NCBI GenBank assembly: GCA_963808015.1
Contig: CAWEEG010000002.1
Span: 1,114 to 65,113, forward strand
DNA from: an uncultured Actinomycetota bacterium
GTDB taxonomy: Bacteria > Actinomycetota > Acidimicrobiia > Spongiisociales > UBA5794
Reading direction: 5' to 3'
DNA length: 64,000 nucleotides
The notes under the pieces are model-generated. The model saw only the letters and a list, made by a program, of their open reading frames with translations. It was not told the origin of the DNA and did no database searches. The position numbers were made by a program, and so were the translations under genes. Of the stretch, positions 924 through 21,858 are shown in pieces (position 1 is the first letter of the stretch; every line of letters begins with the position of its first letter).

Positions 924-951
924 GTCGAGCATATTGCCGGCTATGGGCGGG
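924..951. repeat. dif-like site S1 (class X spacer), empty: GTCGAGCATAT-TGCCGG-CTATGGGCGGG
   Basis: Read directly; 11-6-11 structure with CATA...TATG dyad, similar to the other copies. Confidence 0.8.
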
Positions 952-983
952 CCGTTCGGATCTCAGGGTCACGGGAGCGTCGG

Positions 984-2417
984 CTAGGTGCCGCAATCGT
1001 TGTCTTCTGCAGCGAGGTAGGAGGCACGTTCGAGGATACGTGCTCCCTCCAGGATTGTTGTGTAGTCGCTCAGGTTGCTTAGGTAGAACTCGAAATTGGA
1101 TGCAACTTCGTCACAGGAGGTCGAGGCAAGGATTCCTACGATGGCAACCCGGAACCGATCGTCACCCATCGCAATGAGCTGAGCAGCATCCGCTGTCTCG
1201 GGAGTCACGGGTCGAGCGCTAGCAGTCGATTCGTCGGTGGCCGGTTCCCGGTGCTCCTCGTCGCCGTGGATGCTGATGCAGGTTGACTTCTCGTAGTTGC
1301 AGGTAGCCGCCGACGAATGCCTGAACACCCACTCGATGTTGTCCCGGTTGTCGATCCGTTCGTGCGCACCCTCGTACCCGCTGTACTCGTACGCACCGTT
1401 CAGATCACGGGGATGCAAACGTCGGGATGAACACGGCCGAGTGTGACCGCACCGTTCCATCAGGAGGCAACACCCATGCCGGTCCCTGCGCAGGGGACGG
1501 AGTGAACTCGACACTGTCGAAACAACCGTCGTCCCACCGGTTGCCTACCCATGGGAAGTCCTCGCCGTCAGGTCGTGGCCCCGACTCCACCGGCACGATC
1601 AGCGGCAATGTCACGTCGAACCCATCGGTGAGGTTCGTCATCTCCAGCCGCACTACCGCAACAGCCGCAGCACGTTGAGGGTCCAAGCGTGCACCGTTGC
1701 ACCCTGCCGGGATCGGGACCGGCAACTGGGCCGTAGGCAACTTCTCCGGTCCTGACCAGATACGAGAAATCTGGTACCTCACGACGTAGCCGTCTTCGGT
1801 TGTCTGCACCCACTCAGCCAACAACACGCCATCGTGCGGCGATTCCTCGTTGTAGGTGCCGTCGAATCAGACGCCGAGGCGGCTTCAAGGTAGGAGGCGC
1901 AAAGACCATCCAGCTCCGGTCTTATCTTCACCGGGGAAGCCAGTACCAAGCAGAACCCAATGGAGCGACTTGAGATCCTCATAGCCGCCGTTCCACATCT
2001 CTGCCGAGAGTTCGTCGTCGCCGTGGAACCCGGGGGGCTCCCAGTTGTCTTCGTAACTGCGAGGGAGCATGACCAAGACCAACCGGTTTTCGACACCCTC
2101 TGCGAAACCCAGCGTTACAAATCCACAGCCTCCGGCCTCGTGCTCGTCTTCCACAGTCCAGTCCTCACTGGGCTGAATGCCCCACGTGAATGCTTGGCTC
2201 TCATGAGATGCCCACGCAATCGCAGAGACTGCGAGCGGGGATCGAACGGCACCGCTCGCCAGACCTCGGTAGTCGAGTCCCCGGTAGCCGCAGAAGTCGA
2301 GGATGAGGCCGAGTCGCTCGTCTCGGACATCGGCAACGCCTCACCTTCGCTGGGGCTCGAGCAGCAGGCAGTCGCAAGTACCGCAACAACCGACACAAAC
2401 ACAAGGACCTTCTTCAC
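984..2417 (-). CDS. Putative lipoprotein of unknown function, split over several frames
   Basis: ORF 2115-2417 starts with a lipoprotein-type signal (MKKVLVFVSVVAVLATAC). Co-oriented overlapping ORFs 1885-2154, 1405-1827 and 984-1514 follow. Joining them into one gene is inference. Confidence 0.5.
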
Positions 2418-2479
2418 CGTTCTTCTCCCCTTGCTCTCGCTGCATCATGCTAGGCGCGACCGTCTTGGGTCCCGCGACG

Positions 2480-2507
2480 ACCCCGCATGTCGGCACCTAT
2501 GGGCGAG
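2480..2507. repeat. dif-like site S2 (class Y spacer, reverse), empty: ACCCCGCATGT-CGGCAC-CTATGGGCGAG
   Basis: Read directly. Confidence 0.8.
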
Positions 2508-2559
2508 CCGTCAGACCGAACATAGTGAATCTCCTATGTGGGTGGTTTTGTCAAGGTGC

Positions 2560-2710
2560 TTTCGGGTTGGGTGGACAGGACTGGGTTGAGCGACACCATC
2601 TGGTGGCAGGCTCCTATGAGGTCACACCGCCCTGGCGGATGGGTGGGTGGGGTCGACAGGTCAATATGAGGACAGCATCCGAAGACGCGTCAGCCGGTTA
2701 CTGGGTCAGA
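2560..2710 (-). ncRNA. Putative bridge/seek RNA in the 3' non-coding end of IS110-A1
   Basis: On the minus strand, in order: TAACCGGC (+2693-2700), CATATTG (+2662-2668), CATAGGAG (+2611-2618), ACCCAG (+2581-2586). These match left target, right target, left donor and right donor. RNA boundaries are estimated. Confidence 0.7.
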
Positions 2711-2724
2711 CCCCACCCAGGTCG

Positions 2725-18898: not shown

Positions 18899-18962
18899 TA
18901 GCAACGAGTGGAGCAAGAGAGCGGCCCTCAGCTCGACAAGGCGGACGCCTCAGCCGAACCAA

Positions 18963-19164
18963 CTAGTTGTTCTCGTCTGTCCGCCGCCTCGATGCCTTGT
19001 AGTGCGCCTCACAGAGCTCACGCCTTATGGCTCTTGCCGCAGTCCTTGACGCCGCACAGCTTTGCTCGGCTGGGTACGGGCGCTTCGACGGTCTGATCGT
19101 CGAAGAATCCCACATCGCAGGCCTTGCGACGCTCTGCGGCCTTCCGCCGGCGGCGGGCCTTCAT
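18963..19164 (-). CDS. Small phage-like Cys/His (zinc-finger-like) protein, frameshifted
   Basis: Manual translation MKARRRRKAAERRKAC...KLCGVKDCGKSHKA, then after a frame change ELCEAHYKASRRR. Confidence 0.4.
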
Positions 19165-19849
19165 TCTTCGGCCTCTTGGGCAATGGCTTGCTCGGAGGTG
19201 TGCGAGTTGGTCGGTCTGACGAATTTCACCGGTTCACCGTTCGCGCGGAGCCAAGTGTGGCGGCCTCAGTCCCGGTCTTGTCGGGCTTGTCGTTCTAGTT
19301 GGGCTTCGCTCTCGGCGTCGTTCTCGGGCGGCGGCGGCTTCTCGATCCAGGCGTCGGTGTTGAGGTTGTAGACGGCTGAGGGGTTCGGTTGGCCCTCTTC
19401 GGTCGGCCGGCTCGATGTCGCTAACGGTCGACACCTTTCGGGGCTTGGCGACACTCACGAGGAGACCCGGATGGCCCGCTCTATCGCTTTGAGGCGCTCG
19501 ACGATGATGTCTATGGCTGCGGCAATTCGAGTGAGTTGCTCGGCTTTCGTCTCTTCGGGGAATGGATCCATTGCTCGACCTCCCTTCTCGTGGGTGGATT
19601 GTGAGGGAGGGCGCGCGCCGAACTGCGCGCGCCCCCCGGTCGTACGACTCCGGCCCCGGGGGCGGCGACACGTCGCCGCTGGCCCGTGTTGCTGGAAGGG
19701 AGAAAGAAGCCTGCCGCCTTATGTCGTCGAGTTCTTGAATCATTGGCTGGCGGCGAGGAGTGTCTTTGTGACTTGCTCGGGATCCTCGGAGGAAGGGGCG
19801 AAGGTAGGTAGGTCCCCAAGGGGGGAGACCTTCCCTTCCTCCTTTTACC

Positions 19850-20291
19850 CGGCTGTTGTATATCGGCCATCGGAGGCACGGTCCTACATCATCAACAAGT
19901 TGGGGGAGAACGAAGGCGGATTGGGTGCCGCCGAATACATCTTTCTTGTTCGGCAACCCCGGCGACAAACCCGTTGTTGGGGACTGGGACGGTGACGGCA
20001 TCGATGAGATCGGATTCATCCCGAATCCAGCGGGTTCTTCTCTACCGCAACATGCTGACAACCAGGGATTGCCGATGGCCAGTTCTACTTCGGCGATCCG
20101 GGTGACCGGTTTGTCTCCGGCGACCGGGGTGTCGTGGATGGGGTGGATACCCCTGTGATGTATCGACCTCGAACTCGACGTTCTACTTCCGTCACACCCT
20201 GACCCAAGGCATCGCCGATTCAGAGTTTGCGTGTGGACCGGAGCCGGGTCTCGATTGGCTCCAGGTGTCAGGAGACTTCACCCTCGACTGA
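19850..20291 (+). pseudogene. 5'-truncated paralogue of the FG-GAP-repeat region of 16267-18898
   Basis: VYRPSEARSYIINKLGENEGGLGAAEY...FGNPGDKPVVGDWDGDGID is homologous to residues encoded near 16650-16790. No signal peptide or start is visible. Confidence 0.65.
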
Positions 20292-20330
20292 GCCACCAAG
20301 ACAGCAGGAAGAGGGACCGCCCATAACCGG

Positions 20331-21718
20331 CTGGGTGTGTGTATGCGATGATCAGGGTGGTGTTGCACGCCCCGGTCGGGCGGTGAGGGTCCGGTTGAAC
20401 TGTTAGCAGCAGTTCGGTTGGTCTCGGTCCGCCGTCCCGGTGGCGTGTGCCACCCCTTTGCCCATTAGCGAGAGAAAGGGGCAGCCATGTCGATGGTATC
20501 TGGAGTGATCGGTGGTGTGGACACGCATGCCGATGTGCATGTTGCAGCGGCACTCGATACGAACGGTGCCGTGTTGGGGATCGAGTCGTTCCGAGTGAAC
20601 GAGCCGGCTATCGGCGTTGGCGGACTGGCTGCGCGGCGTTCGGTCCGGTCGTCAGGGTTGGGGTGGAGGGGACCGGGTCGTATGGCGTTGGCCTGGCCCG
20701 ACACCTCCACGGAGGGTGTCGAGGTGGTTGAGGTGGATCGGCCGAATCGTCAGAAGCGTCGCAAGCTGGGGAAGTCGGATCCGATCGACGCTGAGGCTGC
20801 AGCAGAGCCGCCCTATCCGGTGAGGCGACGGTGACGCCGAAGCGGCGTGACGGGACGGTGGAACAGATGCGGGTGTTGATGATTGCGCGCCGTTCGGCAC
20901 GGATCAACGCAATCAGACGCTCAACCAGCTGCGCCAGATCGTCATCTGCGGCCCCGATGAGGTCCGGGCCCGTTTCAAGGACCGATACAAGACCGGCCTC
21001 GTCACTGAGGCGGCTGCGATGCGGCCCCGCAAGGGCTCCGACCCGGTGACCTATACGACGTATGTCGTGATCCGGGGTCTCGCTCGTCGTATCCGGGATC
21101 TCAACGACGAGATGCGCACCATCGACGATGCCCTCAACGAACTGATCGGCACGACGGCGCCGTCGCTGCTCGAGTGTCACGGCGTCGGTGTCGTCACCGC
21201 AGCCACGTTGCTGGTCACGGCGGGTGACAACCCGGACCGGTTGCATACGGAACGCTCATGGGCGCACCTGTGTGGCGTCACCGGTCCCGGCCGGATCAGG
21301 CAAGACCAGCGGCCGGGTCCGTTGAATCATGGCGGGGACCGGCAAGCCAACGCGGCGCTCTACCAGATCGTCCTGACCCGCATGTCAGTCGACGCTGAGA
21401 CCCGCAACTACGTCAGGAGGCGCCGAGCCGAGGGCCTGTCGACCCGCGAGATCATGCGCTGCCTGAAACGCTACGTCGCCCGCCAAACGTTCAAACACCT
21501 GCCCACGAGCCGCATAACAGATCCTGGGTGGGGTCTGACCCAGTAACCGGCTGACGCATCATACGGGTGCTGTCCTCATATTGACCTGTCGACCCCACCC
21601 GCCCGTCCGCCAGGGCGGTGTGACCTCATAGGAGCCTGCCACCAACACGGTGTCGCCCAACCCAGTCCTGTCCACCCAACCCGAAAGCACCTTGACAAAA
21701 CAACACACATAGGAGATT
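20331..21718 (+). mobile_element. IS110-family element type A, copy 2 (inverted relative to copy 1), inserted in site S13 (halves 20316-20330 and 21719-21731 rejoin as ACCGCCCATAA-CCGGCA-ATATGTTCGGT)
   Basis: Close reverse-complement match to 2528-3919. Confidence 0.9.
20487..21546 (+). CDS. IS110-A transposase copy 2, several frameshifts
   Basis: ORFs 20487-20834, 20831-21049 and 21019-21546 reproduce pieces of the 2725-3762 protein. Confidence 0.85.
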
Positions 21719-21858
21719 CAATATGTTCGGTCCACGAAGGGCGCATGGCAGGAGGTTTGTGTGACTAGTCGCGTGGGTCGCGGTGTTGCCTGCTCGATTG
21801 CGTCCGGAGAGCGATTGGTGTCGTCGGCTGGTTCTGGTGTTGCTTCGGTGCGAGACTG

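Follow-up and report, generated by a model that had tools for sequence, protein, structure and literature searches.

The first 24 kb (positions 1-24000) of the stretch analysed here, which we call the window and which comprises 64,000 nucleotides of contig CAWEEG010000002.1 from an uncultured Actinomycetota bacterium of the class Acidimicrobiia, are dense in mobile DNA and contain a gene for an Xer-like tyrosine recombinase flanked on both sides by short, repeated sites (Table 1). There are 12 such sites between 927 and 21728, each with arms of the form GCSCATA / TATGSGC around an asymmetric 8-bp centre; the other 40 kb of the window hold no classifiable site. Four are intact (927, 2483, 15421 and 15466), and seven of the 12 are interrupted by insertion sequence (IS) elements of the IS110 or IS30 families. 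Split sites were rebuilt from the flanks of the inserted elements, and removing the element restores a normal site. Uninterrupted equivalents also exist: that of S9 lies on contig C53 at position 135 (GCTCATA GGTGCTGCGA TATGGGC), and that of S13, beside the same flanking DNA, on contig C7 of genome G016 (GCTCCATA TCCGGCAA TATGTTCGAC). The two sites nearest the recombinase gene are the upstream primary site, S8, ~60 nt from its start codon, and the degenerate S7, whose counterpart in orthologous loci is a downstream primary site reading CATA TCGRGGCACC TATGCGC.

Table 1 Sites, inserted elements and recombinase gene of the array in the window. Polarity is left or right according to the reading of the site centre.
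Feature	Position (strand)	Class and polarity	Sequence	Remarks
S1	927-948	intact X, left	GAGCATA TTGCCGGC TATGGGC	left boundary of array
S2	2483-2504	intact Y, left	CCGCATG TCGGCACC TATGGGC	
S3	2518-3931 (-)	X, left	halves GAACATA GTG / CCGGA TATGGGC	split by IS110-A
IS110-A in S3	~2528-3919			transposase 2725-3762 (-)
S5	5683-7169 (-)	Y, left	halves GCCCATA TCG / GCACC TATGGGC	split by IS110-B1
IS110-B1 in S5	~5693-7157			transposase 5811-7046 (-)
S6	9350-10796 (-)	Y, left	halves GCCCATA TCG / GCACA TATGCGT	split by IS110-B2
IS110-B2 in S6	~9360-10784			transposase 9546-10694 (-)
S7	~10806-10833	degenerate	..GCATAT TCCAC ATATGCGCTAGG	adjoins recombinase stop codon
Tyrosine recombinase, Xer-like, 305 aa	10835-11752 (-)			HxxR and H...Y motifs present; no IntI-type insertion
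S8	11804-13095 (-)	upstream primary Y, right	halves GCCCATA GGTG / CCGA TATGGGC	split by IS110-C
IS110-C in S8	~11815-13084			transposase 11831-12874 (-)
S9	13431-14671 (-)	Y variant, right	GGTGCTGC..GCCGA	split by IS30 element
IS30 in S9	~13443-14659			transposase 13458-14594 (-)
S10	15421-15442	intact X, right	GCCCATG ACCGGCAT TCTGGGC	
S11	15466-15487	intact, perfect Y, right	GCCCATA GGTGCCGA TATGGGC	
S12	16089-16135	scar, both halves right	GTCCATA TCCGG + IS30-type inverted-repeat remnant + GCCGA CATGGGC	
S13	20319-21728 (+)	X, right	halves GCCCATA ACCGG / CAA TATGTTC	right boundary; split by IS110-A2
IS110-A2 in S13	~20331-21718			frame disrupted; inverted copy of IS110-A

The sites are imperfect palindromes in which the arms are nearly palindromic and the asymmetry sits in the centre. 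Two centre classes recur: Y, with the core CGGCAC (full centre TCGGCACC, reverse complement GGTGCCGA), and X, with the core TGCCGG (full centre TTGCCGGM, reverse complement KCCGGCAA). A preliminary description of this DNA had distinguished the same two classes by a 6-bp spacer; the classes hold, and the six bases are the middle of the 8-bp centre. Read as 11-6-11, the sites share the layout of dif, and the arms GCGCATA / TATG are also similar to those of dif. Pattern matches with at most one mismatch outnumber those of a reversed-pattern control by 19 to 1 in G016, 20 to 0 in G018 and 29 to 2 in G025, and by this measure the site family is far above chance. A search for the host's true dif site in the 65%-complete bin returned four CATA-N8-TATG matches, none convincing, and Rfam and tRNA scans of the region gave nothing at threshold, with no attC model among those of Rfam.

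Variation on this plan takes two forms. A third centre class, represented by TCGAAGCC with an 8-nt centre and TCGARGCACC with a 10-nt centre, occurs at L002 (809 and 1470), G002:C430:892 and G005:C54:979, and keeps the polarity rule described below. In addition, X and Y sites recur as close pairs, X first and Y 34-45 bp further on, start to start; examples are found in the window (15421-15487) and in L101 (14538/14573, 15975/16010 and 19829/19864), L102 (1261/1296), L028 (13180/13214) and L014 (6406/6441). The paired cores are reverse complements with a one-base offset (TGCCG versus CGGCA), and in single-stranded form the composite of ~80 nt can adopt a long, bulged hairpin (z about -2.7 to -3) reminiscent of attC.

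Site orientation in the window is mirror-symmetric about the recombinase gene. All six sites to its left read CGGCAC or TGCCGG or are degenerate, and all six to its right read GTGCCG or CCGGCA. The preliminary description had claimed this symmetry and had seen no exception to it; a scan of the 24 kb for a core next to an arm likewise found none, the sole extra match (at 9793) lying inside an IS110 open reading frame and lacking a left arm. Two features of the count bear on its weight: five of the ten sites first listed are reconstructions across an inserted IS, and S3 and S13 lie in a diverged inverted pair of one IS (92% identity) and are not fully independent. The appearance of the same switch at homologous recombinase loci had been set beforehand as a test of the symmetry, and every gene-bearing locus with both flanks visible shows it (the window, two loci in G016, G002, G013, L021, L026, L028, L078 and the metagenome loci L117 and L119). 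Across 13 gene-bearing loci, the window included, 43 of 43 classifiable sites obey the rule (25 left-hand sites read left and 18 right-hand sites read right), with the X and Y classes each doing so separately, and the four further metagenome loci L117-L120 agree. Because the bracketed unit is passed on whole, the gene-bearing loci do not count as independent replicates of the switch. Co-orientation within an arm would be expected from site-specific integration anyway; the special feature of these loci is the pair of inverted sites that the recombinase unit carries. The arms are unequal and occur to either side of the gene: there are 11 sites upstream and one downstream in G016:C5, three downstream and one upstream in G002, and two upstream and five downstream in L028, which comes from a closed chromosome.

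At every locus with both flanks visible, the recombinase gene is bracketed by a site ~60-80 nt before its start and an inverted site after its stop, giving a conserved unit of ~1.1 kb (site, recombinase, inverted site). Homology between loci runs from site to site, as in the match of G016:C5 2670-3857 to G016:C7 18814-20000 and to stretches of L023 and L026. The same boundaries emerge from ten contigs that come from different samples and encode a 100% identical recombinase. These contigs are identical from TATGCGC.. in the upstream site to ..GCGCATA GGTGCC in the downstream site and have their breakpoints in the two centres. Beyond the breakpoints the neighbouring sequences are unrelated and reassorted, with at least four kinds upstream and at least five downstream; in two of the ten, an IS110-B-type element occupies the downstream site. 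In the metagenome contig L197, separately, 1-139 is a 139-bp inverted copy (99% identity) of the sequence immediately beyond the downstream site of its recombinase unit (4125-4263), either a real inverted duplication or an assembly hairpin.

By sequence the enzyme is Xer-like, with scores well below the cut-offs of the Xer models. It scores 161.9 bits against the XerD model (cut-off 329.6), 159.8 against XerC (cut-off 335) and 129.7 against XerA (cut-off 220), and 84.7 and 55.1 bits against two integron-integrase models (cut-offs 265 and 435). The best match among solved structures is E. coli XerD (1a0p, 1.6e-23), aligned over residues 33-283 without insertion, whereas the integron integrase IntI4 (2a3v) aligns to residues 218-294 only; database names for the protein are generic (‘XerD’, ‘integrase’). 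Orthologues of at least 84% identity are patchy in the genus (G002, G005, G009, G013, G019 and, in two copies, G016), homologues of 63-73% identity occur in G006, G021, G037 and L028, and every genome has matches of 34-38% identity that are presumably housekeeping Xer proteins. According to public records, the hosts of related loci are Acidimicrobiia or Actinomycetota metagenome bins.

The bracket extends only part of the way into the wider family. The inverted bracket is present in L028 and L078 (67-73% identity), but it is lacking among the metagenome homologues L121-L196, and across the wider family inverted flank matches are no better than direct ones. Many genome loci in the 64-73% identity range (L033, L035, L036, L039 and others, although not L045) have a CGGCAC core 120-310 nt upstream of the start codon within different arms; for many of those at 67-72% identity, this upstream core is all that is conserved. 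Arm sequence also appears to differ by clade: the clade of the window together with L028 and L078 uses CATA/TATG, whereas L033, L036 and L039 (70-72% identity) use arms of a GCGCTGG type around the same CGGCAC core. One such site reads GCGCTGGA TCGGCACC CCCAGCGC, and L033, L036, L039 and L045 have a TGCCGG motif downstream, after a terminator. Homologues of the recombinase in the 64-73% identity range abound, and metagenomes gave more than 500 matches to them.

The segments between sites behave as cassettes. The preliminary description had proposed that same-side sites, as direct repeats, allow cassette excision and insertion; such sites do behave as cassette boundaries, with homology between genomes starting and stopping inside site centres. 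Site-bounded cassettes are shared, for example, between G016:C5 (7949-8422) and G018:C3 (11877-12339) and, in reverse complement, between G010:C5 (8068-8669) and L021, and a 305-bp site-bounded cassette is present three times at ~99% identity in G016:C5 (L014 6441-6773, 8400-8732 and 8707-9034), two of the copies in tandem. The orientation of shared segments follows site polarity. In ten of ten comparisons of shared non-IS segments (nine from an all-against-all comparison of arrays, plus the right flank of the window against G016:C7), segments face the same way where their arms agree in polarity and are inverted where the arms are opposed. In two cases the shared neighbour lies in the upstream arm of one genome and the downstream arm of another, which fits the proposed inversion of the core: the module to the right of S13 (21746-23690) adjoins the upstream arm in the window but the downstream arm in G016:C7, with the same X-class boundary site at both joins, and a 0.9-kb site-bounded cassette of 95% identity is second downstream in G002 and second upstream, inverted, in G005. 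Such placements could arise by inversion across the core or by independent entry into each arm, and either route would require the sites of both arms. The window's own cassettes, sought in 21 relatives, gave matches only to IS elements.

The comparisons thus show the anatomy of the sites, the polarity rule and its conservation, the cassette boundaries inside the centres and the reassortment of neighbours, the last two being evidence that the sites are recombination points. We propose that the region is a chromosomal array of gene cassettes organised around short dif/Xer-type sites, with a core in which the recombinase gene lies between inverted sites, and we put the probability of this reading at roughly 60%. 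Support for it is real and purely comparative. With tyrosine recombinases, directly repeated sites lead to excision or integration and inverted sites to inversion. In the model we favour, cassettes would be added and exchanged at both bracketing sites, each newcomer adopting the polarity of the site at which it enters, and two arms would result, each co-oriented and of opposite polarity to the other. The two or more centre classes presumably would not recombine with each other. Events within an arm would gain or delete cassettes; events between arms would invert the core and move cassettes to the other arm with their polarity preserved, so that mirror symmetry would be kept under every allowed event. 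No site-specific event, however, would excise the central segment. A recombinase gene placed between direct sites would be lost, which would explain why every observed copy lies at a polarity switch. From these patterns we infer that this recombinase is the acting enzyme, that inversion occurs and that the recombinase gene is non-excisable.

Several observations weigh against this proposal. Genomes G018 (20 sites), G025 (29), G010 (10), G012 (10) and G017 (6) have no orthologue, and their sole recombinase matches are 34-37% identical and resemble housekeeping Xer proteins; within the genus, sites are as common in members without an orthologue as in those with one. Some gene-less arrays even switch polarity. 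G017:C20 reads LX, LX, LY, LX / RY, RY, RY, RX around an open reading frame of ~130 codons; in G010:C5 six L sites are followed by two R sites, and the switch is occupied by genes for a lipoprotein, a TetR-like protein and one unknown product; and contig C52, from the same bin as the window, bears a second two-armed array that lacks a recombinase gene; in G018:C3, 27 sites share a single polarity. The preliminary description had tied the switch to the recombinase gene, and these three arrays do not support this as stated: every copy of the gene observed lies at a switch, yet a switch can exist without it. The acting enzyme could be host XerC/D, or the gene-less arrays could be relics. In the window, moreover, the coding direction of cassettes is not strictly tied to polarity, since the genes at 7179-9218 (+; left arm) and 15501-15971 (-; right arm) oppose the majority. 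All of the genomes are metagenome bins, so the absence of a gene from any of them is itself uncertain.

Both facts about the gene and the switch would fit a combination of survivorship and architecture, in which the recombinase gene persists only within a central segment that is not excisable. Gene-less arrays can have lost the gene, can never have had it (as CALINs relate to integrons) or can be served in trans by another enzyme. Outward growth of the array from the recombinase, also suggested previously, is plausible, because both flanking sites are points of turnover; as a whole, the earlier interpretation is partly supported.

The most serious competing explanation is that the host's housekeeping XerC/D serves the arrays in trans, as has been proposed for the pdif modules of Acinetobacter. 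The Xer-like gene would then be cargo or a helper, and mirror polarity would be a property of the arrays. The abundance of sites in the five genomes without an orthologue, the switches that have no recombinase at their centre and the dif-like arms all agree with it. Nevertheless, near-palindromic arms suit one recombinase, not a XerC and XerD pair; the recombinase gene is always directly bracketed by sites, and the conserved unit ends exactly there; and arm sequence appears to change with the recombinase clade. Furthermore, G003, G014 and G015 have housekeeping Xer matches yet no sites. We regard this explanation as unlikely.

The array could instead be a frozen relic, in which one ancestral inversion was inherited with the recombinase unit and no recombination takes place today. 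The polarity of the bracketing sites is indeed common to the orthologous units by descent, which makes the loci non-independent, and the window array itself, with most of its sites interrupted, looks largely frozen by its IS parasites. The only intact same-class pairs left in the window are S1 with S10 (X) and S2 with S11 (Y), both of which would invert the segment containing the recombinase; neither arm retains an intact same-class direct pair, so excision would no longer be possible in this array. Other loci argue otherwise. Identical recombinase units lie beside many unrelated and reassorted neighbours, three copies of one cassette in G016:C5 are 99% identical, and a cassette of 95% identity occupies opposite arms in two species; these observations suggest recent exchange at the sites in at least some lineages. 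We consider a relic improbable.

The remaining explanations fare worse. That the sites are mere targets or ends of IS110 and IS30 elements, with a mirror pattern produced by IS orientation, draws on the placement of every IS in the region inside a site in fixed orientation and on the inverted IS pair of 92% identity in S3 and S13. Empty sites dominate elsewhere, however, with almost no IS among the 11 sites of G016:C5 or the 27 of G018:C3, and most sites in G016, G017 and G010 are likewise empty; the switch falls at the recombinase unit and not at an IS, and IS orientation follows site polarity, not the reverse. The empty arrays led us to reject an origin from IS alone, which we judge very improbable. 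We give as little credence to the suggestion that replication direction sets polarity, as reported for attC sites in sedentary integrons, and that the arrays straddle an origin or terminus. The dif-like form of the sites agrees with it, since dif is found at the terminus. However, the sign of the GC skew does not change across the arrays of G010:C5 (131 kb) or G017:C20 (116 kb examined), nor does it in C2 or in C51, which carries a paralogue of the left flank, and this reading was also rejected. Least probable is an assembly artefact from mis-joining at repeated IS copies in a short-read bin, for which one could cite the five IS110-A copies of 90-98% identity in the bin and the contig breaks at them, because the switch is at the recombinase unit and not at a repeat, and the same bracket appears in long-contig assemblies (G016, in seven contigs; the closed chromosomes OZ244166 and OZ244163) as well as in numerous independent contigs from metagenomes.

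Two other models were discarded. The counts of six and six sites in the window and four and four in G017 had prompted a nested-transposon (‘Russian doll’) model, but paired sites differ in class and other arrays have 1 versus 11 and 8 versus 27. A target-site-duplication model, in which cassettes have terminal inverted repeats and the centre is the duplication, cannot yield inverted centres flanking the recombinase unit.

The IS110-A pair (2514-3932 and 20318-21732; 92% identity, 16.4 kb apart and inverted) could invert the whole core through homologous recombination. Further copies lie on contigs C44 (98% identity), C4 and C52, and every copy occupies an X-class site and faces the same way with respect to its centre (..CATA TTG / IS / CCGGA TATGG..).

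The surroundings of the array suggest a wider context. At 23599-23695, 1.9 kb to the right of the array, there is a partial tRNA-Ala(GGC) gene, of which only the 3' half (anticodon loop to acceptor end) is present, with a hairpin behind it; the full gene is found at C44:27963-28057, 3 kb from another X-class site that holds IS110-A, and the piece of ~95 bp occurs in several copies per genome in every genome of the genus. This piece looks like an att remnant of an island integrated at tRNA-Ala, and the array may therefore sit in such an island. The left flank of the array, an inositol-monophosphatase-like gene with the boundary half-site, is present in three copies in the bin at 78-90% identity (C51:54589-57892, C52:1346-4601 and C2:90-2064), representing either real paralogous islands or related strains binned together; the C52 copy leads into the gene-less two-armed array mentioned above, and contigs C4 and C53 also bear sites. 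The largest cassette (noted at 16307-18898 and 19856-20158) encodes an 863-residue protein with FG-GAP-like ‘GNPGD..GDWDGDG’ repeats, CarboxypepD_reg domains and a Vps62 domain, and paralogous matches to its N-terminal repeat region number more than 25, spread over at least ten other contigs of the same genome.

If the proposed array is real, this locus and the dozens like it in Acidimicrobiia bins would constitute the phylum's own cassette-capture system, made from an Xer-type recombinase and dif-like sites. The two-armed layout would supply a simple rule, namely that a recombinase lying between inverted sites is unable to delete itself, whereas all other segments remain mobile. The two site classes may not cross-react; with sites of 22 bp and an enzyme of 305 residues, the system would then be a compact natural analogue of engineered cassette exchange. 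It would also be a natural setting for competition between RNA-guided IS110 elements and an IS30 over one 8-bp target. The cassettes, which are strain-specific, appear mostly to encode secreted- or lipoprotein-like products, and the arrays may thus be a main source of cell-surface diversity in abundant uncultured bacteria.

How does this system relate to those already known? We found no description of it in the full-text literature searched. Functionally it is closest to integrons. As in an integron, a dedicated tyrosine recombinase is encoded beside a primary site, here ~60 nt upstream of its start, and the cassettes, which are strain-specific and mostly contain a single gene, lie in arrays in which imperfect palindromes of one polarity set them apart. 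The parallel extends to recombinase-less arrays, which recall the CALINs (attC clusters lacking an integrase), and to the IS110-family elements that home to the sites, as the IS1111-attC group does in integrons. By contrast, the recombinase is Xer-like, lacks the additional domain specific to IntI and falls below the integron-integrase cut-offs; taken singly, the sites are dif-like, duplex-type palindromes of 22-28 bp, whereas attC sites are inverted repeats of 57-141 bp (R''-L''...L'-R') that recombine as folded single strands, although the recurrent X+Y pairs can form a bulged hairpin of ~80 nt; and a second, inverted primary site after the stop codon places cassettes on both sides, in two arms instead of one co-oriented array. 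Integrons are, moreover, reportedly absent from Actinobacteria.

In site form, the closest relatives are the XerC/D-dependent pdif modules of Acinetobacter, in which short Xer-type sites (an arm, a centre of 6-8 bp and another arm) also delimit mobile modules. IS1202-family elements target pdif sites (PMC10132070), much as IS elements target the sites described here. However, pdif sites are 28 bp long, with distinct XerC and XerD arms and a 6-bp centre, whereas the arms here are near-palindromic and polarity resides in the centre. Sites of pdif modules alternate in orientation, whereas consecutive sites within an arm here are repeated directly (11 in succession in G016:C5 and 27 in G018:C3); and pdif modules are found mostly on plasmids with no linked dedicated recombinase, whereas the arrays here are chromosomal and have a recombinase embedded in them.

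Single-recombinase Xer systems (XerS/difSL, XerH/difH and archaeal XerA) likewise place one Xer-like recombinase beside its own short, near-symmetrical site, and XerD and XerA are the best solved-structure matches of the enzyme. Those systems resolve chromosome dimers at one terminus site, whereas the present arrays comprise tens of sites with cassettes between them, show no skew switch and have a patchily distributed accessory gene: the recombinase falls below the XerC, XerD and XerA equivalog cut-offs, its sites are multi-copy and the gene comes and goes within the genus. Finally, Hin/hix, the hsdS shufflons of type I restriction systems with their embedded integrase and Rci of R64 all have a recombinase inside a segment between inverted sites, which inverts and cannot delete. 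Shufflons and switches of this kind, however, shuffle parts of one gene, whereas the sites here are intergenic, directly repeated within an arm and separate unrelated genes.

The system is thus a member of neither the integrons nor the pdif modules. More broadly, and at somewhat less than even odds, it may be a gene-capture platform of Acidimicrobiia and related Actinomycetota that resembles integrons but evolved separately. Such a platform would combine an Xer-derived, self-locked recombinase with two cassette entry points and with X and Y classes that keep sub-arrays apart. Inversions between arms or double cross-overs would shuttle cassettes and swap the central segment, X+Y pairs might serve as attC-like folded substrates, and RNA-guided IS110 elements would home to the site centres.

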